DNA of 64,000 nt from Eubacteriales bacterium (GCA_045540975.1 JAZQIE010000072.1:6158-70157), one strand, 5' to 3'; counted from the first letter of the stretch, positions 15,052 through 53,216 are shown. The notes: generated by a model not told the origin, from the letters alone. Made by a program: numbers and translations.

Positions 15052-15126
15052 TGGCACCCCCTGCGGGAATCGAACCCACAACGGCCCCTTAGGAGGGGGC
15101 TGTTATATCCATTTAACTAAGGAGGC
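15052..15126 (-). tRNA. tRNA-Arg (anticodon CCU), CCA encoded
   Basis: The reverse complement GCCTCCT-TA-GTTA-AATGGATA-TAAC-A-GCCCC-CTCCTAA-GGGGC-CGTT-GTGGG-TTCGATT-CCCGC-AGGGGGT-G-CCA folds as a 75-nt cloverleaf. The anticodon loop C-U-CCU-A-A and the T-loop TTCGATT are present. Confidence 0.9.
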
Positions 15127-19575: not shown

Positions 19576-20100
19576 ATGGACAGCAGTAAACGTGCTTTTT
19601 ACAAATGGATTTCATATGGCATCCTCATCGCTGCGGTTATGATCGTAGAGAGTACTTTACTGTGCCGTCTTTCGGTTTTCTCCGCCACTCCGTCGCTGAT
19701 TCCGTATCTGGTTGCGGTCATCGCGATGCGTGAGGGCATCTCGGGTGCGGCAGGCATCGGACTCATGGCAGGCATCATCACCGATGCAATGGTCCCGTCT
19801 GTGACCGGTTTTTACACAATCACCTTTGTCATCTGCGGTATTGCGGTGGGGATTTTGTGCCGTGTGCTGTTTCAAAAGCACTATCCCGCCTCGCTGTTGT
19901 ATTGGCTGATTTGTCTGCTTATTAAGAATGTTGCATATTACGTGGTGGTATTTGTGCTGTGGGGCAGACCCATCGGCACCGAACTTTTTTGGCGCTGGGG
20001 CGGAGAAGTGCTTGCCACCTTGCTGTTTACCCCGCTTTTGTATTGGGCAGTTTGGAACATCAGCCGCAGATATCTGCGTGAGGAAGAGAGTGGCGTATGA
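19576..20100 (+). CDS. mreD: Rod shape-determining protein MreD
   Basis: A 174-aa multi-pass membrane protein directly after mreC. It overlaps PBP2 by 4 nt. Confidence 0.75.
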   Translation: MDSSKRAFYKWISYGILIAAVMIVESTLLCRLSVFSATPSLIPYLVAVIAMREGISGAAGIGLMAGIITDAMVPSVTGFYTITFVICGIAVGILCRVLFQKHYPASLLYWLICLLIKNVAYYVVVFVLWGRPIGTELFWRWGGEVLATLLFTPLLYWAVWNISRRYLREEESGV

Positions 20101-22166
20101 ATAAAGACACATTACAGCATCGCTCGGTCTTTCTGGTAATTTTGCTTGTGATACTGATGATTGTGGGCATTGGACGACTTTACAACCTGCAAATCGTAAA
20201 AGGTGAGGAGTATCTCCGTCAATCCGAGAGCAAGCTCACTCGCTCGGTCACATTGGAAGCGCCGCGCGGCGAGATTTTGGACCGCAACGGACAAACCATG
20301 GTCACCAACCGCACCTGCTTCATGGTGGAGTTTGACGCGGTGTCTTGGCGCAAGGTGGAAGACCGCGCCAATCTGATTTGGAAACTCATCGCGCTGTGCG
20401 ATGCAAACGGTCAGGAGCACCGCGATTCCCTGCCCGTTTCCGAAACACAGCCGTTTTCGTATACCTATGTCCCCGAAATGGGCTCCGAGCAGGAAGCCGA
20501 TATGGTGGCATACCTGAAAAAACGCGACTATCCGCTCAATTTACCTGCGAGCGAATTTATCGACCGCATGGCAGAGCGGTATGAAATCCCCGACACATAT
20601 ACCCCCGAGCAGAAACGTGCCATTGTGGGCGTGCGCTATGAGATGGAGATTCGTCAATTCTCCACCACACTCCCGTTTGTGTTTGCCGAGGATATCGAGG
20701 TTGCGCTTGCAACCAAGATTCAGGAGCAAAACCGACTGTTTTCCTGCGTGAATATCACGGTCAAACCCCAACGTGAGTATCAAACCAAAACCGCGGCACA
20801 CATTTTGGGGCGCGTGGGCAATATCTACGCGGAGGAATATCCCAAGCTCAAGGACAAAGGCTACCGCAGAAACGATGAAATCGGAAAAGACGGCATGGAG
20901 CGGTATCTGGAGGATTGGCTGCGCGGAATGGACGGGCTTCAGACCATTGAAACCACCACCGCGGGTAAAATCACCAACATGGTGAGTGAGGTTGCGCCCG
21001 TGCCGGGCAAGGAATGTACCCTCACCATCGACTCCGCGGTGCAAAAAGCGGCGGAGGATGCACTTGCATATATCATCCCCAAACTGCGCCGCGAGGGTCT
21101 TACCAACTCGCGCTGGGGCGGGAACAATGCAAAGGGCGGCGCGGTGGTCGCGATTGATGTGAAAACCGGCGGCATCCTTGCGATGGCATCCAACCCCACA
21201 TATGACCTCACCGAGTTTAACAAGAATTACAACGCGATGCTCAAAGACCCCTTAAAGCCCATGCTCAACCGTGCAATTTCCGGTCATTATCCTCCGGGCT
21301 CGACCTTTAAGATGGTCACATCTCTCGCCGCCTTGGATGCAGGCGTTATCACCCCGAATTCCACCGTGGTGGACGAGGGTATTTACACCTATTACAAAGG
21401 CTATCAGCCGCGCTGCGATATTTTCAAAACCTACGGCAAGACCCACGGCAGTGTGAATGTCAGCGGGGCAATCAAGGTCTCCTGCAACTACTTCTTCTAC
21501 GATGTGGGCAGACGGACAGGCATCAGCAAAATTGAGGAAACCGCAAAGAAATTCGGCTTTGGCAGTACCACGGGCATTGAACTCCCGGGCGAGCTGAAGG
21601 GTCAGATTGCGGGGTACGAAACCCGTGAAAAAGCGGGCGGAATCTGGTATGACGGCGATACGCTGAGCGCATCCATCGGTCAGTCGGACACGCTGGTCAC
21701 ACCGCTCCAGCTTGCAAACTACACCGCAATGCTCGCAACCCGCGGGACACAGTATGTGCCGCATCTTGTAAAGCGTGTCCGCGATCCCGAGACCAATGAG
21801 ATTCTGTTTAGCGAGACACCCACCGTACTCAACCAAGCGGAGTATGACGATAAGTATTGGAACGCGGTCTTAAACGGAATGTACCGCGCGGCGCATGAGC
21901 CCGACGGCACCGCATATGCGATGTTCAAGGAATATCCCATCAAAGTGGGCGCAAAAACAGGCTCGGCGCAGGCACCCGGCGGGTCGCACGCGCTGTTTGT
22001 CGCATTCGCACCGTTTGACGATCCCGAAATCGCGGTTGCGGTCGTGGTGGAAAACGGCGGTCAGGGCAGCCGCATCACCGAGGTGGCAAAGCGCGTATTT
22101 GACGCGTATTTCTTCGACACCTCCAATCAGAATCTCTCGCAAACCGAGAACAACTTGGTACAGTAA
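20097..22166 (+). CDS. mrdA: Penicillin-binding protein 2 (elongation transpeptidase)
   Basis: An N-terminal TM segment, RGEILDRNG, the transpeptidase SxxK (PPGSTFKMVT), SxN (KVSCNY) and KTG (GAKTGSAQ) motifs are present. Confidence 0.9.
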   Translation: MNKDTLQHRSVFLVILLVILMIVGIGRLYNLQIVKGEEYLRQSESKLTRSVTLEAPRGEILDRNGQTMVTNRTCFMVEFDAVSWRKVEDRANLIWKLIALCDANGQEHRDSLPVSETQPFSYTYVPEMGSEQEADMVAYLKKRDYPLNLPASEFIDRMAERYEIPDTYTPEQKRAIVGVRYEMEIRQFSTTLPFVFAEDIEVALATKIQEQNRLFSCVNITVKPQREYQTKTAAHILGRVGNIYAEEYPKLKDKGYRRNDEIGKDGMERYLEDWLRGMDGLQTIETTTAGKITNMVSEVAPVPGKECTLTIDSAVQKAAEDALAYIIPKLRREGLTNSRWGGNNAKGGAVVAIDVKTGGILAMASNPTYDLTEFNKNYNAMLKDPLKPMLNRAISGHYPPGSTFKMVTSLAALDAGVITPNSTVVDEGIYTYYKGYQPRCDIFKTYGKTHGSVNVSGAIKVSCNYFFYDVGRRTGISKIEETAKKFGFGSTTGIELPGELKGQIAGYETREKAGGIWYDGDTLSASIGQSDTLVTPLQLANYTAMLATRGTQYVPHLVKRVRDPETNEILFSETPTVLNQAEYDDKYWNAVLNGMYRAAHEPDGTAYAMFKEYPIKVGAKTGSAQAPGGSHALFVAFAPFDDPEIAVAVVVENGGQGSRITEVAKRVFDAYFFDTSNQNLSQTENNLVQ

Positions 22167-22179
22167 AGGGGGAAACACT

Positions 22180-22917
22180 GTGGCAGAAATTATTTGTATC
22201 GCATCCGGTAAGGGCGGTACGGGGAAAACCTCGCTCTCCGCGGGGCTCTCGTGCAGTCTTGCAAGGATGGGACGTTCGGTCCTGGTTGTGGACATGGACA
22301 TCGGACTTCGGAATCTGGATTTGGTGCTTGGCATCACCGAGCACGCGCTTTTTGATTTTACCGATGTGCTGTTCGGCCGTGCAACCCTCAAGGAAGCCGC
22401 GACTCCGCACCCCGATGTACCCGGACTCTCCTTCCTTGCCGCACCGCTCGGCATTCCCGAGGAGGAAATCACGGTGGAGGCATTCTCTGCCTTTGCGGAA
22501 GAGGCAAAGGGGATGTTTGATATTTGCATTTTAGACTGTCCCGCAGGGATTGGAAACGGCTTTTCTCATGCGGCAAGTGTGGCGGACCGTGCAATTGTGG
22601 TGGCAACACCCGACCAAACCAGCCTGCGTGACGCACAGATGACACGGTTTGCACTGATGGAGCAGGGGGTGGAGGAAATCCACCTTGCGGTCAACCGCAT
22701 TTCGCGGTTTGTGTCCGCGCTGTCGCTGGATGAGATCATCGACCGTACCGGGATTGCACTTATCGGTGCGGTGCCCGAGGATCGGGTTGTGATTGCATCG
22801 GCAAACAAAGGCGAGCTTGTGGTGAACAAGCCGCGGTCACGCGCGGCAAAGGCATATGCCAATATTGCACAACGGCTTACGGGAGTGAGCGTTCCGCTCT
22901 TGCGACAAGTCAGATAG
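22180..22917 (+). CDS. minD: Septum site-determining ATPase MinD (short C-terminus)
   Basis: The deviant Walker [25 protein letters not shown] (as in E. coli and B. subtilis MinD) and ILDCPAGI are present. The GTG start at 22180 follows AAGGGGGAAAC. The protein ends ...[16 protein letters not shown]. Confidence 0.85.
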
Positions 22918-23399: not shown

Positions 23400-24494
23400 A
23401 TGGCATACTATAAATTACCTGAAAAAGCAACCAGAAAATTCGTTGAAGACCTGTACGTGGGCTACGGCTTCACCGCTCAGCAGGCAAAGGACATCGCAGA
23501 CGTTCTGCTCATGGCTGACCTGTACGGCATCGAGTCCCACGGTATTCAGCGCTTGATCCGTTATCATGACGGCATTCAGGAAGGTCTCATCGTTCCGAAG
23601 GCAGAGCCGGTCATCACCCATGAAACCAAGCTCTCCGCTGTCATCGATGCAAAGATGGCAATGGGTCAGGTGGTTTCCAAGATGGCAATGCAGATGGCAA
23701 TCGACAAGGCAAAGGAGCATGGCTTCGGTGCTGTCGTTGTCAACCATTCCAACCACTACGGTATCGCGGGTTACTACACCCGTATGGCGGTTGAGCAGGA
23801 CATGATGGGCTTCTGCTTCACCAACACCGAGGCAATCGCAATCCCGACCAACGGCAAGAATGCAATGCTGGGTACCAACCCGATCGCATTCGGTATGCCG
23901 GCGGATCCCACCCCGTTCCTCTACGACGTGGCAACCACCGTTGTTCCGCGCGGTAAGTTGGAGGTTTACAACAAGAAGGGCGCTCCGCTGCCCATGGGTT
24001 GGGTGGTTGACGCAAACGGTCTCGATACCACCAACGCCGGCGAAGTCATCCAGAACATCATCAACAAAGCAGGCGGCGGCATCCTGCCGATCGGCGGCTC
24101 CTCTGAACTGACCGGTTCCCACAAGGGCTACGGTCTGGGCGCAATCGTTGAAATCCTCACCGCAATCATGGCGGGCGGCGTGACCTCCAACCATGTTTCC
24201 CACTGCGGTAACGGTGATACCTCCGAAGCATTCTGGGCAATCGACTACGGTATGTTCGGTGATAAGGCGACCATGCGCAAGAACTGCTCTGTCCTCCTCG
24301 AAGAGCTGCGCAACAGCGCAAAGGCAGAGGGTCAGACCCGTATCTACACCCACGGTGAAAAGGAACTCGAGTCCACTCAGGAAAAACTGAGAGACGGTCT
24401 GCCGGCAAACGAAAAGACCATCGGCGAAATGCAGAAAATCGGCGCAACCGTCGGTATCAACTTCGAAGACTACTTCGGCAAAGTCATCGACTAA
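23400..24494 (+). CDS. Ldh_2 family oxidoreductase (malate/L-lactate/sulfolactate-dehydrogenase type 2 family)
   Basis: VLLMADLYGIESHGIQRLIRY, NHSNHYGIAGYY, AMLGTNPIAFGMP and GSHKGYGLG are family blocks. The substrate is not inferable. Confidence 0.8.
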   Translation: MAYYKLPEKATRKFVEDLYVGYGFTAQQAKDIADVLLMADLYGIESHGIQRLIRYHDGIQEGLIVPKAEPVITHETKLSAVIDAKMAMGQVVSKMAMQMAIDKAKEHGFGAVVVNHSNHYGIAGYYTRMAVEQDMMGFCFTNTEAIAIPTNGKNAMLGTNPIAFGMPADPTPFLYDVATTVVPRGKLEVYNKKGAPLPMGWVVDANGLDTTNAGEVIQNIINKAGGGILPIGGSSELTGSHKGYGLGAIVEILTAIMAGGVTSNHVSHCGNGDTSEAFWAIDYGMFGDKATMRKNCSVLLEELRNSAKAEGQTRIYTHGEKELESTQEKLRDGLPANEKTIGEMQKIGATVGINFEDYFGKVID

Positions 24495-24505
24495 TCAAGA
24501 AAACG

Positions 24506-24536
24506 AAAATCCCGAGTCATATGACTCGGGATTTTT
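24506..24536. terminator. Bidirectional terminator
   Basis: A perfect palindrome AAAATCCCGAGTCAT/ATGACTCGGGATTTT lies between convergent genes. Confidence 0.85.
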
Positions 24537-24537
24537 C

Positions 24538-25437
24538 TTACTTATTGAGGAGTTTGAGTGCGTTTTCGCGGCAGACCTTGTTGTAAGCCGCCTGCGAGAT
24601 TTTTCCGGATTCCACCGCATCGTCGAGGAAGAAGGAAAGCTTGAAATCGCCTTCCATCTGGTCGGGATGGCAAATGTCGGTGCCGAAATAGAGGCGATCC
24701 TGGAATTCTTCGATGAACTTGTAGCCAAACTCGGGGTCGCGCATGATGGCGTTTCCGCCGCTGCCTGCGGACATATCGCTGTGCAGATTCGGATACTTGC
24801 GCATGAGCTCGACCACACGTCCGCCCGGAATGACCGGACCTGTGGGATAACCGTCACGGACTTCCGCGGTGCAGTCGCCGCTGATTTCCGCCCAGTATTT
24901 TTGGCTGTGACCGATGAAGATGAGATTCGGGAACTCCTTGAGGGATTTTTCCAGTCTCGGAAGACCCAAATCGTCCACCAAGCCGTAGTCACGGCCTTTG
25001 TTTCCGATGTGGAACAGAATCGGCATCTCGCACTTTTCCGCGTGGCGGAAGAGATTCCAGACCAGCGGCTCGTCAAAGTACAGATTCGCGGTGAGTTCAC
25101 CGATGCCGCGTGCACCGTGTTCCTTGTACCACTCGAGCATGGGGGTAAAGTCCGCATCCACATCGTTGATGATGTTTCTCGGGTCAACGTTGCAGAACCA
25201 CGCGAGACGGTCGGGGTAGAGTGCGGTGAGTTCCATCGCTTCCTCGTTGGTCATGGTGTGGCAGCCCCATTCGGGAGAGATGAACGGGAGCTGAACACCC
25301 AGTTCAATCCCCTGCAGGTCGAAGAATCGGAACATTTCCTCGGGGGTGAGGAAATCACCGAGCTTCGCGGAATAAAAACGCGGAGTCCCCTTTTTCATGA
25401 CCACATGGGTATGAATGTCGATTTTTTTAACTAACAT
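24538..25437 (-). CDS. Amidohydrolase-2 (COG2159-like TIM-barrel metal hydrolase/decarboxylase) paralogue 1
   Basis: MLVKKIDIHTHV (HxH metal site), FHIGN, GHSQKYWAEIS and DRLYFGTD are present. It is one of three tandem paralogues. Confidence 0.75.
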   Translation of the reverse strand: MLVKKIDIHTHVVMKKGTPRFYSAKLGDFLTPEEMFRFFDLQGIELGVQLPFISPEWGCHTMTNEEAMELTALYPDRLAWFCNVDPRNIINDVDADFTPMLEWYKEHGARGIGELTANLYFDEPLVWNLFRHAEKCEMPILFHIGNKGRDYGLVDDLGLPRLEKSLKEFPNLIFIGHSQKYWAEISGDCTAEVRDGYPTGPVIPGGRVVELMRKYPNLHSDMSAGSGGNAIMRDPEFGYKFIEEFQDRLYFGTDICHPDQMEGDFKLSFFLDDAVESGKISQAAYNKVCRENALKLLNK

Positions 25438-25450
25438 GATACATTCTCCT

Positions 25451-26353
25451 TTATTTGTAAAACTCGCCGTTTAAGAGACGGAGTGCATTCTCGCGGCAGA
25501 TTTTGTTGTATGCGGTTTGGGAAATTTTGCCCGATTCCACCGCATCATCGAGGTAAGCCGAGAGGTGGAATTCGTTTCTCGGGTCACACACGTCGGTGCC
25601 GAAATAGAGGCGGTCGCTAAATTCCTCAAGGAAGGCATAGCCAAATTCGGGGTCGCGCATAATCGCGTTTTCCGCGCTGCCCGCCGAGAGGTCGCCGTGG
25701 AGATTCGGGTATTTGCGCATGAGCTCGACCACACGTCCGCCCGGGGTGACCGGACCCGTGGGGTAGCCGTCGCGCCCTTTTTCATCACAATCCCCGCTGA
25801 TTTCCGCCCAGAATTTCTGGCTGTGGCCGAGGAAAATGAGATTCGGGAATTCTTTGAGGGTCTTCTCCAGCCGCGGAAGACCGAGTTCGTCAATCAGACC
25901 GTAGTCCGAGCCGTTATTTCCGATATGGAAGGTGACGGGCATTTGGCATTTCTCCGCATGGCAGAAGAGATTCCAAACGCGCGGGTCGTCGAAATACATA
26001 TTTGCGAGCATTTCACCGATGCCCTTTGCGCCAAACGCCTTGAAGCTGTTTAAGATGGGGGTGAAATCCGTTTCTTCGTTGTTCTGACCGAAGCGCGGGT
26101 CAATACAGCAAAACCACTCGAACAAATCGGGATACTGACGTACCATTTCATAGGACTCTTCGTTGGTGATTTGGTGGAGTCCTGCCTCGGGCTTGACCAC
26201 GGGCAGCTGTACACCTTTTTCAATGCCCATTTTGTCGTACATCTTACGAAGTTCGTCCGGAGTGGGGAACTCGTAGAAGGTGGGGTCTAAGCGGTATTGC
26301 AGACATTTGTGCAGGCACGCGTGAACATGGATGTCGATTTTTTTGACTAACAT
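25451..26353 (-). CDS. Amidohydrolase-2 paralogue 2
   Basis: MLVKKIDIHVHA..., the same conserved blocks as paralogue 1, and a 13-nt gap to the neighbour. Confidence 0.75.
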   Translation of the reverse strand: MLVKKIDIHVHACLHKCLQYRLDPTFYEFPTPDELRKMYDKMGIEKGVQLPVVKPEAGLHQITNEESYEMVRQYPDLFEWFCCIDPRFGQNNEETDFTPILNSFKAFGAKGIGEMLANMYFDDPRVWNLFCHAEKCQMPVTFHIGNNGSDYGLIDELGLPRLEKTLKEFPNLIFLGHSQKFWAEISGDCDEKGRDGYPTGPVTPGGRVVELMRKYPNLHGDLSAGSAENAIMRDPEFGYAFLEEFSDRLYFGTDVCDPRNEFHLSAYLDDAVESGKISQTAYNKICRENALRLLNGEFYK

Positions 26354-26365
26354 AGCGGATTCTCC

Positions 26366-27262
26366 TTATTTGTAACGCTCGCGGTTTAAGAGTTTGAGCG
26401 CATTTTCGCGCGAGATTTTGCGGTATGCATCCTCGGAAAGCCTGCCTGAGAGCACCAACTCGTCGAGGTACTTGGAGAGCGGGAATTCATTGTGCGGCGA
26501 GCAAATATCCGTGCCGAAATAGAGGCGGTCACGAAACTCCTCCATAAACGCGATGCCGAATTCGGGGTCGCGCATGATGGCGTTTCCGCCGCTGCCTGCC
26601 GAGAGGTCGCCGTGGTGATTCGGGTATTTGCGCATGAGTTCCACCACACGGCCCGGGGTGACAGGCCCTTCGGGATAGCCGTTGCGGAGTTCTTCGGTGC
26701 AGTCGGCGCTGATTTCCGCCCAGAACTTCTGGGAGTGGCCGAGGAAGATGAGATTCGGGAATTCTTTTAAGGTCTTTTCAAGTCTTGGGAGTCCGAGTTC
26801 ATCGACAAGTCCGTAATCGCCGCCCATGTTTCCGATGTGGAAGGTGACAGGCATTTGGCATTTCTCCGCATGGCGGAAGAGATTCCACGCACGCGGGTCG
26901 TCAAAGTAAATATTCGAGCAAATCTCACCGATGCCCTTTGCACCGAAGGATTTGTAATACTCAATCATGGGTGTGAAGTCGGAGGTCTCGTCATTCTTCA
27001 TCCAGCGCGGGTCAATGTTGCAAAACCAGTCAAGCGTCTCGGGATAATCACGGACAAGCTCCATGATTTCTTCATTGGTGACCGAGCGGTAAGCGCACTC
27101 ACTTCCGATGCTGGGGAGTACCACACCTTTTTCAATGCCCCACGCGTTGTATTTGACGCGAAGCTCTTCCGGAGAGGCATAAGAGGAATTGTCGCTGTGG
27201 ATACGCGGGAAGCCTTTGGTACGGGCGGTGTGAACATGGATATCAATTTTTTTTACAAGCAT
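26366..27262 (-). CDS. Amidohydrolase-2 paralogue 3
   Basis: The start is taken at internal ATG 27262 (MLVKKIDIHVHT), 8 nt after GGAG, so that it aligns with the paralogues. The longer ORF to 27418 would run across the divergent gene. Confidence 0.75.
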   Translation of the reverse strand: MLVKKIDIHVHTARTKGFPRIHSDNSSYASPEELRVKYNAWGIEKGVVLPSIGSECAYRSVTNEEIMELVRDYPETLDWFCNIDPRWMKNDETSDFTPMIEYYKSFGAKGIGEICSNIYFDDPRAWNLFRHAEKCQMPVTFHIGNMGGDYGLVDELGLPRLEKTLKEFPNLIFLGHSQKFWAEISADCTEELRNGYPEGPVTPGRVVELMRKYPNHHGDLSAGSGGNAIMRDPEFGIAFMEEFRDRLYFGTDICSPHNEFPLSKYLDELVLSGRLSEDAYRKISRENALKLLNRERYK

Positions 27263-27281
27263 AGCCAAGACTCCTTTTTTG

Positions 27282-27313
27282 TGGTACAATGAAGTTACGG
27301 GGTCATTGTAGCA
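27282..27313. promoter_or_regulatory. Pair of overlapping opposite-strand extended -10 promoters inside an 8-bp inverted repeat
   Basis: On the plus strand TGgTACAAT (27282-27290). On the minus strand TGcTACAAT (27313-27305). TACAATGA (27285-27292) and TCATTGTA (27303-27310) form a perfect inverted repeat. Confidence 0.5.
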
Positions 27314-27350
27314 CAGAATCCCGCTAAAAGCAAGGAAAAGGGGAAAGAAA

Positions 27351-27923
27351 ATGAGCCATAAATTTTTTGCATTTTTATACCGCATGAAGCACATCGAACG
27401 CTGGTCGCTCATGCGCAATACCCAAAAGGAAAATATCGCGGAGCATTCGTATTATGTCGCGGTTTTGGCGCATACCTTGGGTGTCATCCGCCGCGATGTG
27501 TTTGGGGTGGCGTGCAGCCCCGAGCAGTATGCCCTCGCCTCGCTGTATCACGACATTTCCGAGATTTTGACCGGGGATATGCCCACCCCGATTAAGTATT
27601 TTAACCCTGCCATCCGCGATGCGTATCACCAAGTGGAGAAGATTTCCAATGAGAAACTCATGTCGCACCTTCCGGATGAGATGCGACCCGAGTGGGAAGG
27701 TCTTCTGGAAACCGAGGGGGATGTCAAGACGGTGGTACACGCGGCGGATAAGCTCTCCGCATACTTAAAATGCGTGGAGGAGGTTTTCTCGGGCAACCGC
27801 GAATTTGAGTGCGCGAAAGACCAGACCGAGGCGGCACTCCGCGATTTGCATATGCCCGAGGTGGATTACTTCCTGCGCGAGTTTGCACCCGCACTCGAAC
27901 TCACGCTGGACGAAATGGAATAG
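27351..27923 (+). CDS. HD-domain 5'-deoxynucleotidase (YfbR-like)
   Basis: FLYRMKHIERWSLMRNTQKENIAEHSYYVAVLAH, LYHDISEILTGDMPTP and the DKLSAYLKC blocks of the YfbR family are present. Confidence 0.8.
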   Translation: MSHKFFAFLYRMKHIERWSLMRNTQKENIAEHSYYVAVLAHTLGVIRRDVFGVACSPEQYALASLYHDISEILTGDMPTPIKYFNPAIRDAYHQVEKISNEKLMSHLPDEMRPEWEGLLETEGDVKTVVHAADKLSAYLKCVEEVFSGNREFECAKDQTEAALRDLHMPEVDYFLREFAPALELTLDEME

Positions 27924-27926
27924 GCG

Positions 27927-27952
27927 AAAGGACGGCAACGCCGTCCTTTTTT
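27927..27952 (+). terminator. Terminator after the HD-domain gene
   Basis: AAAGGACGGC-aac-GCCGTCCTTTTTT. Confidence 0.85.
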
Positions 27953-28012
27953 CTTGCAGAAACGCGCGGTTTTTGGTATGATACAAATAACGATACTTTT
28001 TTTGGTGATGAT

Positions 28013-28972
28013 ATGATGAATCAAGCATTGCTCGACCGCCTTGCGGTCATCACGGAGGAGGAAGAAGCCATCCTCTCGGGCCGCGCGCAAATCAAACGCG
28101 AACTTTATATGCAGGGCGAGAAAGACACGGTGAGTGCGAAAAAACTGCTGGATGCGGGAAAACTCATCGACTACCGTCCGCACACCCGATTCATTCGTTT
28201 TCCCGCGCACACACACGATTATGTGGAAGTGATTTATATGTGCCGCGGGGAAACCGTTCACGCGGTCAACGATACCCAAATCACACTCAAGCAAGGGGAA
28301 CTTTTGTTTCTCAATCAGCACGCGGTCCATGCGGTGGAACGCGCGGAGGAATGGGATATTGCGGTCAATTTCATTGTGCTGCCCACGTTTTTTGCGCAAT
28401 CACTTGCCGCGTTGGGGGAAGCGGAAACCCCGCTGCGCCGCTTTTTGCTGGATGCACTTTGCGGACAGACCGACGGCCCCGATTACCTGCATTTTCGCGT
28501 GAGCGAGGTGGTTCCCATCCAAAATCTGCTGGAAAACCTGCTCTTTGCACTGTTGGAGGAGTCGCCCGTGCGCCGTGCGACCGCGCAGATGACCATGACC
28601 CTTCTCTTTCTGCAGCTTTTGGGACAAACCGACCGACTGGAAACCGAGACCCGCGCGCAAGCGGTTTTGGTGCAGGTGCTTTCCTACATTGAGGAGCATT
28701 ATGCAACGGGAAGTCTTGGCGAGGCGGCACGGCTGCTGCATTATGATTTTTACTGGCTCTCGCGCGAGATCAAGCGCCTGACCGGGAAGACCTATACCGA
28801 ACTGGTGCAGGACAAACGGCTTGCGCAGGCGTGCTTTTTGCTCCGTACCACAAACCGAAATGTGGATGAAATCGCCCGTGCGGTGGGGTATGAGAATATG
28901 GGATATTTCCATCGCATTTTCCGCGGCGCATTCGGGGTGTCACCGCGAGAATACCGATTGCAAATCAGGTAA
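28013..28972 (+). CDS. AraC family transcriptional regulator (cupin + HTH), upstream of rhaBAD
   Basis: An N-terminal cupin-like region (FPAHTHDYVEVIYMCRGE) and a C-terminal AraC HTH (VDEIARAVGYENMGYFHRIFRGAFGVSPREYR) are present. The start is at ATG 28013. Confidence 0.85.
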   Translation: MMNQALLDRLAVITEEEEAILSGRAQIKRELYMQGEKDTVSAKKLLDAGKLIDYRPHTRFIRFPAHTHDYVEVIYMCRGETVHAVNDTQITLKQGELLFLNQHAVHAVERAEEWDIAVNFIVLPTFFAQSLAALGEAETPLRRFLLDALCGQTDGPDYLHFRVSEVVPIQNLLENLLFALLEESPVRRATAQMTMTLLFLQLLGQTDRLETETRAQAVLVQVLSYIEEHYATGSLGEAARLLHYDFYWLSREIKRLTGKTYTELVQDKRLAQACFLLRTTNRNVDEIARAVGYENMGYFHRIFRGAFGVSPREYRLQIR

Positions 28973-29034
28973 CTTTTTCAGTTAAATCAGGACCTCCCGA
29001 AACCGTGTGAAATGCGGTAAACTAAACCTCGGAG

Positions 29035-30315
29035 GTGAGTGCTTTGCGCACATATCTTGCAATTGATATCGGCGCGTCCTCGGGTCGGCACATTGTTGGC
29101 TGGCGTGAGGACGGAGAATTGAAAACCCGCGAGGTCTATCGCTTCGAAAACGGAGTGGAGGAGCAGGGCGGACATTTGGTGTGGAATCTCGCACGCTTGG
29201 TGCGAGAGGTGAAGGCGGGCATTGATGCCGCGCTTTTGCAATACCCAAAAATCGAGAGCCTTGCGATTGATACCTGGGGTGTGGATTATGTCCTGCTGCG
29301 CGGCGAAGAGGCGGTAAGCCCGATGTTTGCCTACCGCGATGCGCGTACCGAGGCGGTCATCGAAGAGGTCCACAGCATTGTTCCGTTTTCCGAATTGTAC
29401 CGAAAAACAGGCTGTCAATTCCAGCCGTTTAACAGTATCTATCAGATTTACGATGACTTGCGCCGCGGCAGACTCGAGGGGGTCACCGACCTTCTCATGC
29501 TGCCCGAGTATTTGATTTACGCGCTCTGCGGCGGTATGGCGCGTGAGTACACCAATGCGACCACCACAGGTCTGGTCAATGCGAAAAGCGGTGAATTTGA
29601 CCGCGAGATTATCGATGCATTGGGTCTTCCGCCGCATCTTTTCCCGTCTCTCAGTAAGCCGGGTACGGTGGTGGGCGAGTACAAGGGCATCCGCTGTGTG
29701 CTTTGCGCCACCCATGATACCGCGTCCGCGGTGGAGGGGATTCCGATGGAAGGAAACGCCCCGTATATCTCGTCGGGCACATGGAGTCTCTTGGGAGTCA
29801 AGACCCCGCACGCGATTTGTGATGAAGCATCCCGATGTGTGAATTACTCCAACGAGGGCGGTGTGGGCTACAACCGTTACCAGAAAAACATCATGGGGAT
29901 GTGGGTGGTAAACGAACTGCGCCGTGAGATTTGTCCCAAGGTGCTGTTTGACGAGTTGGTCGGACTTGCAAAATGCAGTACGTTTGACCGTGTTGTGGAT
30001 GTAAACGACGCCGCATTTTTGGCGCCGAAGAGCATGAAAGAAGCGTATGACACCGCATTGGGTACGCCGTGTAATACGGTGGGAGATTATTTCCGCTGTG
30101 CTTACCGCTCACTCGCGGTGAGTTATCAAACCGCGCTCGAGGAATTGGAGCGCAACACCGCGACCCGCTACGATACGCTGTATGTGGTGGGCGGCGGTGC
30201 GAAAAACGAATACCTCAACGAACTCACCCGTGCGGAAACGGGAAAACGTGTCATCGCGCTTCCCATTGAAGCAACCGCACTCGGAAATCTCAAGATACAA
30301 ATGGAGGTCGACTGA
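29035..30315 (+). CDS. rhaB: Rhamnulokinase
   Basis: YLAIDIGASSGRHIVG, LAIDTWGVDYVLL, CATHDTASAV and VVGGGAKNEYLN (FGGY kinase) are present. An in-frame TTG at 29044, 8 nt after GGAGG, is a plausible alternative start. Confidence 0.85.
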   Translation: MSALRTYLAIDIGASSGRHIVGWREDGELKTREVYRFENGVEEQGGHLVWNLARLVREVKAGIDAALLQYPKIESLAIDTWGVDYVLLRGEEAVSPMFAYRDARTEAVIEEVHSIVPFSELYRKTGCQFQPFNSIYQIYDDLRRGRLEGVTDLLMLPEYLIYALCGGMAREYTNATTTGLVNAKSGEFDREIIDALGLPPHLFPSLSKPGTVVGEYKGIRCVLCATHDTASAVEGIPMEGNAPYISSGTWSLLGVKTPHAICDEASRCVNYSNEGGVGYNRYQKNIMGMWVVNELRREICPKVLFDELVGLAKCSTFDRVVDVNDAAFLAPKSMKEAYDTALGTPCNTVGDYFRCAYRSLAVSYQTALEELERNTATRYDTLYVVGGGAKNEYLNELTRAETGKRVIALPIEATALGNLKIQMEVD

Positions 30316-31565
30316 TGAGTTACTTAGATGCAAAAGCGAAATACGCCGCATACGGTGTGGATACCGATGCCGCAATCGAGACCTTGAAAACCGTGCCGCT
30401 CGCCCTGCATTGCTGGCAGGGGGATGATGTGCGCGGCTTTGACACCGACCCGACCAAGCCTCTCACGGGCGGGATTCAGACCACGGGCAACTACCCGGGG
30501 CGTGCGCGCACACCCGAAGAGCTGATGGCGGATATTGACCGAGTCATCGCGCTGGTGCCCGGGCAGGTCAAACTCAACCTGCACGCGAGCTACGCGATTT
30601 TCGACGAGGAAAACGGCGGTTGGGTGGACCGCGACAAATTAGAGCCCAAGCACTTCAAAAAATGGGTGGAATTTTGCAAAGCGCGTGGGTTGGGGTGCGA
30701 TTTTAACCCCACCTTCTTCTCCCATCCCAAGTGCGACCCGCTCACCTTATCAAGCCCCAACGAGGAGACGCGTAAATTCTGGGTGGATCACGGCAAAGCG
30801 TGTGTCCGCATCTCGCAGTATTTGGCGGAGGAGTTGGGTCAGCCGTGTGTCATGAATATTTGGATCGGAGACGGCTTTAAGGACATCCCTGCCGACCGCT
30901 TGGGTCCGAGAATGCGCTGCAAACAGTCGTTTGACGAAATCCTCTCCGAGCCGTTTGACCCGAAACTGGTCTATCCGTGCGCGGAATCCAAGGTATTCGG
31001 CATCGGTGTGGAGAGTTATACGGTGACAAGCGCGGAATGGTGCGTGAAATACGCGGCATCCCGTCCCGACTGCATCACACTTATGGACAACGGGCATTAC
31101 CATCCCACCGAGGTGGTGTCCGACAAGCTCTCCGCGGTGCTGGCGTACGACGAAAAGGTCGCGCTCCACATCACACGCGGCGTGCGTTGGGACAGCGACC
31201 ATGTGGTGCTGTTTGACGATGAGACCCGTGAGCTTTGCAAGGAAGTTGTCCGCTGCGGCATTGACCGCGTCTTTTTGGCGCTGGATTTCTTTGACGCCTC
31301 CATCAACCGTATCTCGGCATGGGTCAACGGCTTCCGCAACGTGCAAAAGGCGCTCTTGTATGCCCTCCTTGAGCCGAAGGAGGAACTCAAAGCCTTGCAG
31401 GATGAAGGCAATTTCACCAAGCTTATGGTACGTCTGGAAGAAGAAAAAACCATGCCCTTCGGCACGGTTTGGGAGGAATACTGCCGCCGCTGCGGTGCAC
31501 CCGCAGACGGGGAGTGGTATTCGGATGTGGAAGCCTACGAAGAAGTGTTGAGAAAGAGAGGTTAG
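30315..31565 (+). CDS. rhaA: L-rhamnose isomerase
   Basis: AKAKYAAYGVDTDAAIETLKTVPLALHCWQGDDVRGF, LNLHASYA, MDNGHYHPTE and RWDSDHVV are present. Confidence 0.92.
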   Translation: MSYLDAKAKYAAYGVDTDAAIETLKTVPLALHCWQGDDVRGFDTDPTKPLTGGIQTTGNYPGRARTPEELMADIDRVIALVPGQVKLNLHASYAIFDEENGGWVDRDKLEPKHFKKWVEFCKARGLGCDFNPTFFSHPKCDPLTLSSPNEETRKFWVDHGKACVRISQYLAEELGQPCVMNIWIGDGFKDIPADRLGPRMRCKQSFDEILSEPFDPKLVYPCAESKVFGIGVESYTVTSAEWCVKYAASRPDCITLMDNGHYHPTEVVSDKLSAVLAYDEKVALHITRGVRWDSDHVVLFDDETRELCKEVVRCGIDRVFLALDFFDASINRISAWVNGFRNVQKALLYALLEPKEELKALQDEGNFTKLMVRLEEEKTMPFGTVWEEYCRRCGAPADGEWYSDVEAYEEVLRKRG

Positions 31566-31569
31566 GCGT

Positions 31570-32385
31570 ATGAAGGATATTTTAACCGCACCGTTTCTCA
31601 CCGAGATGATGCGCACCACCGCAAATATGTACCGCTTGGGGTGGGATGAGAGAAACGGCGGCAACATCAGTTATCGCTTGAAGGAAGAGGAAGTTGCGGA
31701 GTACTTGGATGTGCAGGCTGTTTTGCGCACCATTCCGCTCGGATTTGATGCGTCCCCGGTTTCGGGCGCGTACTTTTTGGTCACGGGCACGGGGAAATAC
31801 TTCAAAAACGTGGAGTTTGACCCGTCGGGGAATTTGGGGCTTGTCCGCATTTCCGCAGACGGGAAAAATGCGGAATTGTTGTGGGGCTTCTCCGACGGCG
31901 GAAAATTCACATCCGAGTTTCCCGCGCATCTCATGAGCCACATCGAGCGGCTTCGGGTCGACCCCGAAAACCGCGTTGTGATGCACACACACCCCACCTA
32001 TACCCTTGCAATGAATTACATCCACGAGCTCGACGAAAAGAAATTCACCCACACCTTGTGGGAGATGTGCACCGAGTGTATCGTGGTCTTCCCGGACGGT
32101 GTGGGTGTGCTTCCGTGGATGCTTTGCGGCACCAATGAAATCGGGGAAGCGACCGCGAAAAAGATGCGCGAATTCCGTGTGGTTGTTTGGGGGATGCACG
32201 GAATCTACGGCGCGGGAAAGTCCATGGACGAGGCGTTCGGACTCATCGAAACCGTGGAAAAAGCCGCGCAAATCTATGTCCTCACCGCACATATGCCGCG
32301 TATCAACACCATCCGCGACGAAGAACTCAAAACCCTTGCGGAGGCCTTCGGCGTTACCTATCGGAAGGATTTTCTGAATCTGTAA
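31570..32385 (+). CDS. rhaD: Rhamnulose-1-phosphate aldolase
   Basis: MYRLGWDERNGGNISYRL, VMHTHPT and VVWGMHGIYGAG (class II aldolase) are present. Confidence 0.9.
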   Translation: MKDILTAPFLTEMMRTTANMYRLGWDERNGGNISYRLKEEEVAEYLDVQAVLRTIPLGFDASPVSGAYFLVTGTGKYFKNVEFDPSGNLGLVRISADGKNAELLWGFSDGGKFTSEFPAHLMSHIERLRVDPENRVVMHTHPTYTLAMNYIHELDEKKFTHTLWEMCTECIVVFPDGVGVLPWMLCGTNEIGEATAKKMREFRVVVWGMHGIYGAGKSMDEAFGLIETVEKAAQIYVLTAHMPRINTIRDEELKTLAEAFGVTYRKDFLNL

Positions 32386-33145
32386 GCCTGCGCCAGGCAC
32401 CCGGGGTCGTTCCCGTCACCGTCTTGAATTGGCGGATGAAATGATACTGGTCGTGATAACCGAGCGCCTCAGCCACCGCAACCACCGAGAGGGAATCGTC
32501 GGAGAGTAAGAGGGATTTTGCATATCCCACACGCGCTTCGATGAGGTCCTGCATGGGTGAGGTGCCGAATGTGGATTTATAAACTGCGTGAAACCGCGAA
32601 GGGGAGAGCGATGCAAGCTCCGCCATTTTCTCCACCGTCCAATTCCATTCCGGACGGGAGAGAACAGCCTTTCGTACATCGCGCAGTTTTTTTCTGCCCT
32701 GTGTCACGGGTAAAGACTCTTTTTTGAGCGCGCGAGAGAATTTGATGAGAAACTCCTCCACATACCCTGCCATCAGCTCGGTCTTATGCGGTCGGTCGGA
32801 AAAGTATTCCATCTCGATTGCGGAGAAAATTCTGGAAATGAATTCGGGGTTTTCGGGGTACAGCAGGCAGTTGCACGGGATTTCGTATCGGTCAAGGAGT
32901 GGTGCAAGCGCGTGGTCGGTATGCATCCAGTTGTGGACAACATCCTGCGAGGAGCGAAACCATTGCGGTACCGTGGGCTCGTAGAAGATGCAGGCACCGG
33001 GGCGCGCGTGGACGGTCTCAGCCCCGAATTTGAACTCGGCGGAATCGAAAAAATGCAAAAAGGTATAATACGCAAGCCCGCTCGGACGAGAGATGAAAAA
33101 CCCCGCCTTTTCGGGCCAATCGTGGCGCACACTGTGAATTTGCAT
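32354..33145 (-). CDS. AraC family transcriptional regulator (RhaS/RhaR-like architecture)
   Basis: An N-terminal cupin and a C-terminal AraC HTH (VVAVAEALGYHDQYHFIRQFKTVTGTTPGAWR) are present. The 3' end overlaps the 3' end of rhaD by 32 nt, convergently. Confidence 0.85.
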   Translation of the reverse strand: MQIHSVRHDWPEKAGFFISRPSGLAYYTFLHFFDSAEFKFGAETVHARPGACIFYEPTVPQWFRSSQDVVHNWMHTDHALAPLLDRYEIPCNCLLYPENPEFISRIFSAIEMEYFSDRPHKTELMAGYVEEFLIKFSRALKKESLPVTQGRKKLRDVRKAVLSRPEWNWTVEKMAELASLSPSRFHAVYKSTFGTSPMQDLIEARVGYAKSLLLSDDSLSVVAVAEALGYHDQYHFIRQFKTVTGTTPGAWRRLTDSENPSDR

Positions 33146-33261
33146 GAAATCACCTCGTTTGTATTGTAATGCGAACAGTAGGATATGTCAATTATAAAAG
33201 AAAAAACGGCATTTATTTTCAATGCTCCTGCGGTTACAATGAAGAAAAGGAGTGATACAAA

Positions 33262-34959
33262 ATGCAAATTCCGAGACCCGAACATCCGCGCCCACAGTTT
33301 GAGCGCGAGAATTGGATGAACTTAAACGGAACCTGGCAGTTTGAAATCGACAACGGCAGAAGCGGTGAGGAACGGAAGTTAAACATGGTGGGAACTCCGC
33401 TTGCCGCCTCGATTGTGGTGCCGTTTTGTCCGGAAAGCAAACTCTCGGGAATCGGGCATACCGACTTTATCAGCGGTGTCTGGTACAAGCGCACCGTAAC
33501 CGTGCCGAAGCACACGGGCCGTGTCTTTTTGCATTTCGGTGCGGTGGATTACCACACCAAGGCATTTGTAAACGGTGTTCCCGTGGGCGAACACGTGGGC
33601 GGTTATGTGTCCTTCCGATTTGACATTACCGACGCGCTTGTGTGCGGTAAAAACGAGATTACGGTCTACGCGGAGGACGATACCCGCGACCCGATGATTC
33701 CGTCGGGCAAGCAATCCTCCCGCTATGAATCCTACGGCTGTTTTTACACCCGTACCACCGGGATTTGGCAAACCGTGTGGATGGAATTTGTCCCCGAAAC
33801 CCGCATTGAGCGCGTGGAATATTACCCGAATGTTGCGGACGGCAGCGTGACCGTGCGCGCATTTCTGTACGGGGAGGGCGACCTCTCCTGCGAGATTTCC
33901 TATGAAGGGAAAGAGGTGGGATGTCACGAGATGAAATGTGCGGTGGGCGTTGTGTCCTTTACCGTGCCGCTTTCAGAGACCCATCTTTGGGAAGTGGGGC
34001 ATGGGCGACTTTACGATGTGAAATTCACCTTTGGGGAAGACACGGTCAAGAGTTATTTCGGACTTCGCGAAGTGCGAATGGACGGATACAAATTCCTCTT
34101 AAACGGCAAATCCGTGTTCCAGCGTCTGGTACTCGACCAAGGCTTCTATCCGGAGGGGATTTATACCGCGCCGACCGATGCTGACCTCCGCCGCGACATT
34201 GAACTCTCGCTTGCGGTTGGCTTTAACGGTGCGCGGCTTCATGAGAAGGTCTTTGAAGAGCGATTCTTGTACCACGCCGATCGTATGGGATATTTGGTGT
34301 GGGGTGAGTATCCCGACTGGGGGCTTGACCACAGCAGTTTGGAGAATGTCTACGTGCTGCTTCCCGAGTGGATGGCGGAAATCGAGCGGGATTTCAACCA
34401 TCCTGCAATCATCGGCTGGTGTCCGCGCAACGAAACCTGGGACTACCACGGCAGGCCGCAGTTGGGGCATAGCATCGCGCTTGTTTATGATGTGACCAAG
34501 GCGGTCGACCCCACCCGTCCGTGTATCGATACAAGCGGCAACTACCATGTCAAAACCGATATTTTCTGTGTGCATGACTATGACCAGAACCCGACCACCT
34601 TCAAGGAGCACTACGATAAGCTCATGACAGACGGCGAGCTCTTCAACAACTTCCCCGCACGTCAGACCTACAACGGCGAGGCGACCTTCCTGAGCGAATA
34701 CGGCGGAATCGCGTGGAATTTAAATGAAAGCGGTTGGGGATACGGCGAAGGTCCGAAGACACTTGAGGAATTCTACGAGCGGTTTGCGGGGCTGACCGAT
34801 GTGCTGCTCGACAATCATCGGATGTTTGGCTTGTGCTACACCCAACTCACCGATGTGGAGCAGGAGCAAAACGGTCTTTACACGTATGACCGCAGACCCA
34901 AGTTTGACTGTGCGCGCCTGCACGCGGTCATGAGCCGCAAAGCCGCAATTGAAGACTAA
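33262..34959 (+). CDS. Glycoside hydrolase family 2 protein (565 aa)
   Basis: RPEHPRPQFERENWMNLNGTWQFE, AFVNGVPVGEHVGGYVSFRFDIT, GFNGARLHEKV and WCPRNE (acid/base NE) are typical of the GH2 sugar-binding, Ig and TIM layout. Confidence 0.8.
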   Translation: MQIPRPEHPRPQFERENWMNLNGTWQFEIDNGRSGEERKLNMVGTPLAASIVVPFCPESKLSGIGHTDFISGVWYKRTVTVPKHTGRVFLHFGAVDYHTKAFVNGVPVGEHVGGYVSFRFDITDALVCGKNEITVYAEDDTRDPMIPSGKQSSRYESYGCFYTRTTGIWQTVWMEFVPETRIERVEYYPNVADGSVTVRAFLYGEGDLSCEISYEGKEVGCHEMKCAVGVVSFTVPLSETHLWEVGHGRLYDVKFTFGEDTVKSYFGLREVRMDGYKFLLNGKSVFQRLVLDQGFYPEGIYTAPTDADLRRDIELSLAVGFNGARLHEKVFEERFLYHADRMGYLVWGEYPDWGLDHSSLENVYVLLPEWMAEIERDFNHPAIIGWCPRNETWDYHGRPQLGHSIALVYDVTKAVDPTRPCIDTSGNYHVKTDIFCVHDYDQNPTTFKEHYDKLMTDGELFNNFPARQTYNGEATFLSEYGGIAWNLNESGWGYGEGPKTLEEFYERFAGLTDVLLDNHRMFGLCYTQLTDVEQEQNGLYTYDRRPKFDCARLHAVMSRKAAIED

Positions 34960-53110: not shown

Positions 53111-53151
53111 GATAGCCCAAAATTTTGGGTTGTTTGTATTGTTTTTCCGGA

Positions 53152-53186
53152 GCTGCCGATTCCAAAACGGGATCGGCAGTTTTTTA
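53152..53186 (+). terminator. Riboswitch expression-platform terminator
   Basis: GCTGCCGAT-tccaaaacggg-ATCGGCAG followed by TTTTTT, 30 nt upstream of the agcS ATG. Confidence 0.8.
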
Positions 53187-53216
53187 TTCCAAAAAAACAG
53201 GAGGAAACAAAAAACA

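Follow-up and report, generated by a model that had tools for sequence, protein, structure and literature searches.

A conserved operon of three divergent Amidohydro_2 paralogs in a Eubacteriales bacterium and its possible link to sugar metabolism

Results and Discussion

Organization of the three-gene operon

We analyzed a 64,000-nucleotide (nt) stretch of DNA from Eubacteriales bacterium (GCA_045540975.1, JAZQIE010000072.1:6158-70157; "the window" below means this whole stretch), which carries three tandem genes, here called A, B and C, that encode paralogous proteins of the Amidohydro_2 family (PF04909). The features of the locus and of the rest of the window are listed in Table 1. The initial annotation had described three co-directional genes of about 300 amino acids (aa) with gaps of 13 and 12 nt; this layout was borne out, and all the motifs quoted there are present, namely MLVKKIDIH(T/V)H, GLPRLEK(S/T)LKEFPNLIF(I/L)GHSQK(Y/F)WAEIS, GRVVELMRKYPN, NAIMRDPEFG, DRLYFGTD and RENAL(K/R)LLN. 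The flanking genes named there, a convergent Ldh_2 oxidoreductase and a divergent YfbR-type HD nucleotidase, were likewise recovered.

In the table of open reading frames (ORFs) gene A is listed as a 350-aa ORF with a TTG start (26366..27418). We reassigned its start to the ATG at 27262, since this codon lies 8 nt 3' of AAGGAG and yields the family N-terminus MLVKKIDIH; the 350-aa version was rejected because it overlaps the start of the divergent yfbR gene at 27351.

Upstream of gene A, an extended -10 element is predicted, with a weak -35-like hexamer 17 nt upstream of it; the 5' untranslated region expected from this promoter is only ~35-40 nt long. The palindromic promoter region reported earlier corresponds to an inverted repeat whose arms each carry an outward-facing extended -10, TGgTACAAT for YfbR on the plus strand and TGcTACAAT for the operon on the minus strand. 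An orthologous triplet, 91-93% identical to that of the window at the protein level, is found in an Oscillospiraceae metagenome-assembled genome from goat caecum (L001/L007; related loci are designated by L and a number). The operon -10 element is identical in L001, a 93% relative, and only a few positions differ in the A/yfbR intergenic region, compared with a proportion of synonymous differences (pS) of ~0.58 in the coding sequences. The inverted repeat itself is nearly identical in L001 despite the saturated synonymous sites, and is truncated in L010. The repeat may double as an operator besides carrying the two promoters.

The three genes form a self-contained operon, with a ribosome-binding site for each gene, a single predicted promoter and a single terminator that is common to the operon and the convergent Ldh_2 gene. 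No Rfam match to a leader RNA or riboswitch was found near 24.5-27.4 kb. The A-B-C locus contains no regulator, transporter or partner enzyme, in agreement with the initial annotation; for the family overall the statement does not hold, since partners recur elsewhere (see below).

Table 1. Features of the operon, its flanks and other parts of the window.
Feature	Position	Strand	Description
Gene A	26366..27262	-	298 aa, Amidohydro_2 subfamily; Shine-Dalgarno AAGGAG at 27271-27276; PF04909 39.3 bits
Gene B	25451..26353	-	300 aa, Amidohydro_2 subfamily; GGAG inside the 12-nt A-B spacer (sequence reading); PF04909 35.1 bits
Gene C	24538..25437	-	299 aa, Amidohydro_2 subfamily; AGGAG inside the 13-nt B-C spacer (sequence reading); PF04909 35.2 bits
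Predicted extended -10 TGcTACAAT of the operon	27305..27313	-	~40 nt upstream of gene A; sequence reading
Weak -35-like TTGCTT	27328-27333		Upstream of the predicted -10 of the operon
Inverted repeat	27277-27292 / 27303-27318	both	16-nt arms, 88% complementary, 10-nt gap; repeat search
Promoter-like site	27262-27290	+	
Bidirectional intrinsic terminator	24505..24536	both	13-14 bp stem, 4-nt loop, T-runs on both strands; terminator scan and sequence
Ldh_2 oxidoreductase	23400..24494	+	Convergent; 377 bits (Pfam)
YfbR-like HD 5'-deoxynucleotidase	27351..27923	+	Divergent; PF12917 238 bits; NF003009 233.6 bits, above cutoff
AraC-rhaB-rhaA-rhaD-AraC-GH2 block	27809-34959		Rhamnose genes
tRNA-Arg (anticodon CCT)	15052-15126	-	ARAGORN and Rfam
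PBP2 gene	20097-22166		
MinD/ParA-like ORF	21895-22917	+	Listed start lies within the PBP2 gene, 270 nt into its 3' end
Glycine riboswitch aptamer RF00504	53025-53116	+	66.4 bits, E 1.4e-11
491-aa ORF	53130-54605		Directly downstream of the riboswitch aptamer

Family membership and fold

All three proteins exceed the PF04909 gathering score of 26.4 bits (E 9e-10 to 2e-8), which upholds the family assignment made earlier. The match is weak, and the alignments of A and B span only the C-terminal 60% of the proteins. A scan of A, B and C against NCBIfam retrieved no family at E <= 0.01, and phmmer against the PDB sequences gave no match at E <= 1 except chance matches to myosin light chains. A profile built from 41 family members reached only 3irs (BB4693, E 8e-6) and, weakly, 3nur among the PDB sequences. 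In public records the proteins are labelled "amidohydrolase family protein" or "hypothetical protein", and our literature search yielded nothing relevant on a characterized member or on a pathway combining Gfo/Idh/MocA, DegT and Amidohydro_2 proteins. The function is thus unassigned, as had been stated, and the proteins do not fall into an already characterized orthologous group.

The AlphaFold2 model of B, computed with the family alignment as input, is a confident one (pLDDT 94.2, pTM 0.92) and has the (beta/alpha)8 amidohydrolase barrel with eight strand-helix units. Foldseek searches of the PDB with this model gave 115 matches at E <= 1e-3, the best 50 of which all have the amidohydrolase fold and the top ones of which have a probability of 1.00; the best neighbors are 3irs, 2dvt/2dvu, 4i6k, 3cjp, ACMSD, AibH1H2, PtmU3, LigY and 6uvz, with 12-19% identity. 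A, B and C therefore belong to PF04909 both by the Pfam criterion and by fold, and no characterized subgroup of it (decarboxylases, cog3618 lactonases, amidohydrolase-related dinuclear oxygenases) can be shown to include them.

When 1.84 billion representatives, clustered at 50% identity, were searched with the family profile, the number of clusters retrieved was 272, 900 and 1679 at E <= 1e-30, 1e-10 and 1e-3, respectively; the subfamily is therefore small and well delimited and does not make up the bulk of PF04909. Its hosts are almost only uncultured anaerobic Clostridia/Oscillospiraceae from animal guts and anaerobic digesters.

Conservation of the putative active site

Conservation was calculated for 110 members from related loci, positions conserved in at least 97% of them being considered invariant. 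There are 49 such positions, including D7-x-H9-x-H11 (the D-x-H-x-H motif is present in 110/110 members), E114, H143, H177, D221, S223 and D254, and further C82, C256, R207, R233 and D234. A and C retain 49/49 of them and B 48/49, the sole change being G227A. On the barrel, D7-x-H9-x-H11 follows strand 1, while E114, H143, H177, D221 and D254 are placed at strands 4, 5, 6, 7 and 8, respectively. Six residues (H9, H11, E114, H143, H177 and D254) are conserved in 100% of the members and lie at the C-terminal ends of strands 1, 4, 5, 6 and 8 of the predicted model (residues 5-10, 112-115, 140-144, 174-177 and 249-255 by DSSP). In the amidohydrolase superfamily these strand ends are the canonical metal-ligand sites, and a carboxylate on strand 4 is typical of binuclear centers. 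From the sequence positions and the strand assignment in the model we infer a metal center formed by these six residues.

As the full invariant active-site set is kept in every copy, each protein is predicted to be an active metalloenzyme with the same chemistry; none of the three resembles a dead copy.

Age of the triplication

The paralogs are 66-68% identical to each other, and their synonymous differences are saturated (pS 0.57-0.67). In windows of 30 codons pS ranges from 0.39 to 0.90, and across the conserved C-terminal two-thirds from 0.39 to 0.85. The saturated overall pS and the lack of any low-pS window rule out that the identical protein blocks stem from recent duplication or gene conversion; the blocks reflect purifying selection. 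The ratios of the rate of non-synonymous to that of synonymous substitutions (dN/dS) between the window and L001 are 0.052, 0.049 and 0.053 for A, B and C, respectively, at dS of ~1.0-1.2.

The unit of yfbR and the divergent A-B-C genes is present in four lineages (the window, L001, L089 and L090/L091), and the gene A orthologs in L001, L089 and L090 are 91-94% identical; in a fifth lineage, L010, the syntenic site is occupied by a C-type gene alone. The bootstrapped neighbor-joining tree supports the positional orthology of each copy with its L001 counterpart at 100%; it also joins gene C to the lone syntenic gene of L010 with 100% support, and a clade consisting only of the six window and L001 copies occurs in 0% of replicates. 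The nearest relatives in the tree are L012 for A (24% bootstrap) and L008/L009/L011 for B (44%), which are single genes in unrelated contexts. These sequence comparisons indicate that the triplication is old and not a strain-specific recent duplication.

A second triplet is found between mreB and PPDK in L004 and L022, two of its copies being left in L026. Here positional orthology is also kept, and all eight copies are monophyletic at 100%, hence this triplet arose independently. Several independent tandem pairs likewise keep positional orthology across species. The number of copies per locus varies from one to four, and many genomes have several loci. Repeated tandem amplification, with the copies then kept over long periods, is characteristic of the family.

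Divergence among the copies

The initial annotation had placed the divergence in presumed substrate-facing regions. The copies diverge most over roughly the first 100 residues and around the segment that follows GTD(I/V)C. Among the window copies, 90% of positions vary in the loop after strand 1 (residues 11-31; 62% differ in all three), 71% in the loop after strand 2 (residues 50-63) and 62% in the loop after strand 8 (residues 256-263), while strands 4-8 and their helices show little variation. We then compared orthologous groups with four or five species each. Identity is 83-95% within the groups vs 65-72% between them, and 28 positions are fixed within each group and differ between groups. 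The loops after strands 1 and 2, which comprise 35 residues, contain thirteen of these 28 (odds ratio 9.8, Fisher P = 9e-7). Twelve positions differ in all three groups; nine of them belong to these two loops and two to the strand-4 and strand-8 loops. The earlier placement thus agrees with the group-specific differences, the catalytic residues being kept.

In TIM-barrel enzymes such loops form the substrate entrance. The concentration of fixed differences there is what conserved specialization would leave behind; it supports the substrate-diversified battery suggested in the initial annotation and speaks against mere dosage. Amplification for dosage without functional divergence would fit the single promoter serving three genes and the identical catalytic residues. 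However, 32-34% amino-acid divergence is held under dN/dS of ~0.05 per copy, the 28 group-specific positions are concentrated in the active-site loops, and dosage duplicates are normally young or homogenized by gene conversion, neither of which is seen; we consider this explanation highly improbable.

Another explanation is that A, B and C are subunits of one hetero-oligomeric enzyme, comparable to AibH1H2 in PF04909, a heteromer that is among the structural neighbors. The A-B-C order with its 12-13-nt spacing in the four lineages, and the positional orthology in the L004/L022 triplet and several tandem pairs, could be explained in this way. This reading is quite unlikely: all three proteins have the full catalytic set, so that none resembles a degenerate scaffold subunit; the copy number is flexible, as shown by L010 with its C-type gene only and by L026 with two of the three L004-type copies; the closest relatives of A and B are single genes, although with the low bootstrap values given above; and the fixed differences lie in the active-site loops instead of being spread over the surfaces. 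That A, B and C are three active, specialized isozymes is, in our opinion, probable from the sequence evidence.

Gene neighborhoods and the class of substrates

We surveyed the neighborhoods of 80 species-level GTDB loci and 68 usable metagenome loci (~150 loci in total), counting same-strand, closely spaced neighbors as partners. A Gfo/Idh/MocA oxidoreductase gene adjoins the family gene in 15-16 of these loci: 11-12/80 GTDB loci, where it lies immediately downstream with a median gap of 75 nt and occurs in at least four clades, and 4/68 metagenome loci. None of these partner oxidoreductases reaches an NCBIfam equivalog cutoff. A DegT/DnrJ/EryC1 sugar aminotransferase was found in 5-7/80 GTDB and 7/68 metagenome loci. 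Three other partners recur in the GTDB set and were counted in the metagenome set: a sugar-binding protein (SBP; 7/68), a URO-D-like protein (6/68) and GH3 (3/68). Further recurring partners are AraC, sugar ABC systems, true nagA, nagB, PRK02947-type SIS proteins, Cof-type HAD phosphatases and glycerate kinase. The window itself contains no Gfo/Idh/MocA or DegT gene.

Several loci illustrate this association. In L012 only 4 nt separate a GH3 gene from the start of the family gene downstream of it, and the same operon encodes a sugar SBP and an SLH-anchored heparinase II/III-like protein; in L019 the family gene is accompanied by GH123, DUF5107 and two SBPs. The operon at 2620-13226 of L087 consists of nagB, an SBP, an ABC ATPase, a fused double permease, Cof-HAD, HAD_2, SIS_2, the amidohydrolase, a Gfo/Idh/MocA oxidoreductase and nagA, with a LacI regulator and a GlcNAc 2-epimerase encoded divergently. 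Operons of this type are also present in L030, L031 (with DegT in addition), L033 and L049, and in the isolate Treponema sp. OMZ 840. By its gene content, the L087-type operon looks like an unassigned amino-sugar (phosphate) pathway.

The initial annotation had proposed that the enzymes possibly act on diet-derived phenolic acids. This proposal is disfavored by the survey: among the 25 most frequent partner families of the 80 GTDB loci there was no aromatic-acid catabolic family, and the sugar pattern was repeated in the 68 metagenome loci.

The genes next to the operon were also considered. A link to the adjacent rhamnose genes (AraC-rhaBAD) is ruled out: the block is inverted in the window relative to L001 (1370-8329) and is absent in L090, where a citrate-synthase neighbor abuts the unit of yfbR and the triplet directly. 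As it is inverted in one relative and absent in another, the block resembles a movable insertion.

A link to Ldh_2 is weak, since variable genes intervene between Ldh_2 and the array in relatives. The junction has no insert in the window (24495-24537). In L001 (11857-15594) it contains two ORFs, 785 and 405 aa long, neither of which matches a Pfam family, in L089 (3516-6022) Flg_new_2 and TetR, and in L010 (8942-10390) an SLH-domain protein; it is an insertion hot spot. The Ldh_2 protein of the window is 98.9% identical to that of L001 (15755-16849), compared with 91-93% for the amidohydrolases and 94.7% for YfbR.

In three loci (L047 9020-10413, L048 9012-9380 and L053 9071-9439) the family gene is followed by a gene for a BMC-domain shell protein, next to which L047 has a PduV/EutP GTPase fused to a GNAT acetyltransferase. 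In two others (L075 2338-3272 and L080 9982-10781), tandem family pairs precede same-strand genes for a Fur-family regulator and rubrerythrin, which together resemble an oxidative-stress module. Rare fusions combine the family domain with a TadA/dCMP-deaminase-like domain (P0122, 515 aa) or with a type-B carboxylesterase / BD-FAE-like domain (P0163, 731 aa), or its N-terminal half with an Endonuclease_NS domain (P0215, 348 aa). These fusions are represented by single clusters, may be real or artefacts of gene calling or assembly, and are too sparse for use.

The divergent yfbR gene suggests another class of substrates, those derived from nucleotides or nucleobases and handled together with the YfbR 5'-deoxynucleotidase. 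The divergent arrangement is found also in L001, L089, L090, L091 and L010, so that it is conserved, together with the palindromic promoter region, in five lineages; P0122 and P0215 carry nucleic-acid-related domains of the kinds just named; and PF04909 includes iso-orotate decarboxylase. Yet YfbR is a conserved neighbor in this clade only, which amounts to one evolutionary event, and occurs in 0 of the other ~150 loci; the two fusions are the single, possibly artefactual clusters mentioned above, and other nucleotide-metabolism genes are not recurrent. We regard a function linked to YfbR as very unlikely.

Comparison with known systems

The best structural neighbor of the family is BB4693 of Bordetella bronchiseptica (3irs/3k4w; E 2e-11, TM-scores 0.65/0.68), followed here by CAC3332 of Clostridium acetobutylicum (3cjp; 0.60/0.67) and "Amidohydrolase 2" of Bifidobacterium longum subsp. 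infantis (6uvz; 0.57/0.67). Like A, B and C, these proteins have a short one-domain barrel of ~250-300 aa; however, they share only 14-19% identity with the family and are themselves uncharacterized, so that no function can be transferred.

The kinship with ACMSD, LigW, gamma-resorcylate decarboxylase (gamma-RSD) and iso-orotate decarboxylase (IDCase) suggested earlier comes down to the fold. The family shares with gamma-RSD (2dvt), ACMSD (2wm1, 4ign), LigW (4qs5) and IDCase the Pfam family and the barrel with H-x-H on strand 1, histidines on strands 5 and 6 and an aspartate on strand 8, but identity to gamma-RSD, ACMSD and LigW is 13-17%, with TM-scores of ~0.5-0.63 and root-mean-square deviations of ~8 A. 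These enzymes and IDCase are ~325-350 aa long and have insertions that are absent from the A-B-C family, and the gene context of the latter is carbohydrate, not aromatic. We know of no counterpart in these four enzymes of the invariant strand-4 glutamate and the two invariant cysteines.

The cog3618 lactonases (LigI-like, 4i6k) have the same fold (TM-scores 0.60/0.66, 14% identity). The sugar lactonases of this group (L-fucono-1,5-lactonase, and L-galactono-lactonase of Bacteroides vulgatus) act directly after a sugar dehydrogenase, which may be compared with the Gfo/Idh/MocA adjacency described above. LigI-type lactonases are metal-independent, whereas the A-B-C family keeps every canonical metal ligand; in addition, the DegT partner lies outside the known lactonase pathways.

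The amidohydrolase-related dinuclear oxygenases (AROs; AibH1H2, PtmU3, SfbO, TruffO) resemble the family in the PF04909 fold (Foldseek E 1e-6 to 3e-8) and in the N-terminal D7-x-H9. AROs are defined by a C-terminal D-x-P-H-x-D/E motif together with an N-terminal D-x-H (PMC13154177). Membership in this group was rejected, as the C-terminal motif is present in 0/110 members, where the corresponding stretch reads GTD-I-C-x-P-x-N. The A-B-C family also differs in its hosts, which to present knowledge are strict anaerobes.

Among published enzymes, the closest parallel to the phenolic-substrate idea is the ellagic acid lactonase (EAL) of Gordonibacter urolithinfaciens (ROT88165.1), a gut enzyme of the amidohydrolase superfamily that is stimulated by metal, acts on a diet-derived polyphenol lactone and is described as belonging to a separate, widely distributed subclass (bioRxiv 10.64898/2025.12.05.692447). 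Its key residues are H12, H185, H186, R204, R208, H287 and V316/V320, which implies a length of more than 316 aa, and its homologs are found in Eggerthellaceae, Acetobacterium and Actinobacteria (bioRxiv 10.64898/2025.12.05.692447). Going by this description, the A-B-C family is set apart from EAL by residue numbering, length and host range.

These comparisons bear on the view that A, B and C act on aromatic or heterocyclic acids from the diet, as a battery of non-oxidative decarboxylases or lactone hydrolases similar to gamma-RSD, LigW, ACMSD, IDCase or LigI. In its favor, the Foldseek matches with probability 1.00 include gamma-RSD (2dvt/2dvu), ACMSD, LigW2, LigY and a LigI-like protein, the Pfam family is the same, the H-x-H / His / Asp set of those enzymes is present, a gut lactonase of this kind has been reported from Gordonibacter, and the rare fusion P0163 contains an esterase-like domain. 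The low identity and TM-scores, the lack of a PDB relative in the phmmer search, the differences from EAL and the recurrence of sugar and amino-sugar genes instead of aromatic-acid pathways in two independent sets of loci make this view unlikely.

Proposed function

The explanation that we favor is that A, B and C are independently active metalloenzymes with the same chemistry; most likely they are produced jointly and each has a substrate of its own, related to those of the other two. The family-wide gene association suggests that these substrates would be derived from sugars, and several invariant arginines hint that they may be anionic. By the same association, the enzymes could hydrolyze an N-acyl, ester or lactone bond in derivatives of sugars or amino sugars, and in other genomes the product might feed the adjacent pair of a DegT-type aminotransferase and a Gfo/Idh/MocA oxidoreductase.

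Several observations weigh against this explanation. In about half of the related loci the neighbors are unrelated housekeeping genes (mreB, PPDK, trmD, mnmE, MltG), so that the association does not extend to all of them. The lack of a partner, transporter or regulator extends from this locus to the closest relatives, so that the class of substrates is borrowed from relatives that are 52-65% identical. E114 is not opposite an acidic residue in the hidden Markov model alignment to 3irs. Finally, the characterized PF04909 enzymes known to us are decarboxylases, lactonases, hydratases and oxygenases, and we know of no precedent for an N-deacylase among them. Taken as a whole, the reading of A, B and C as active, specialized isozymes that hydrolyze carbohydrate-derived substrates is therefore put forward tentatively, at a little less than an even chance.

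A more far-reaching version would make the subfamily a new functional class in PF04909: a metal-dependent hydrolase, possibly binuclear and assisted by cysteine, in an undescribed route of deacylation, transamination and reduction with DegT and Gfo/Idh/MocA enzymes, which would salvage unusual acetamido sugars of microbial or host glycans in uncultured gut and digester Clostridia, the triplet providing three specificities for the first step. We offer this as a speculation that is unlikely to hold in full.

The operon itself is ordinary and would not surprise a specialist. It exposes, however, a compact, strongly conserved and repeatedly amplified family that has generic annotation only and no characterized or structurally solved close relative. 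If the association with sugars and amino sugars holds, the family would mark an unassigned step in the catabolism of glycan-derived sugars in the organisms dominating gut communities that degrade fiber, and the triplet, diversified in nature, would lend itself to mapping which parts of the strand-1 and strand-2 loops determine specificity. The focus of experimental screening moves accordingly from phenolic acids to sugar derivatives.

Other features of the window

A tRNA-Arg gene was found on the minus strand by both ARAGORN and Rfam, and the N-terminal extension of the MinD/ParA-like ORF, which reaches into the PBP2 gene, is probably spurious, because the ortholog in L001 has 248 aa. A glycine riboswitch aptamer lies directly upstream of the 491-aa ORF (Table 1).

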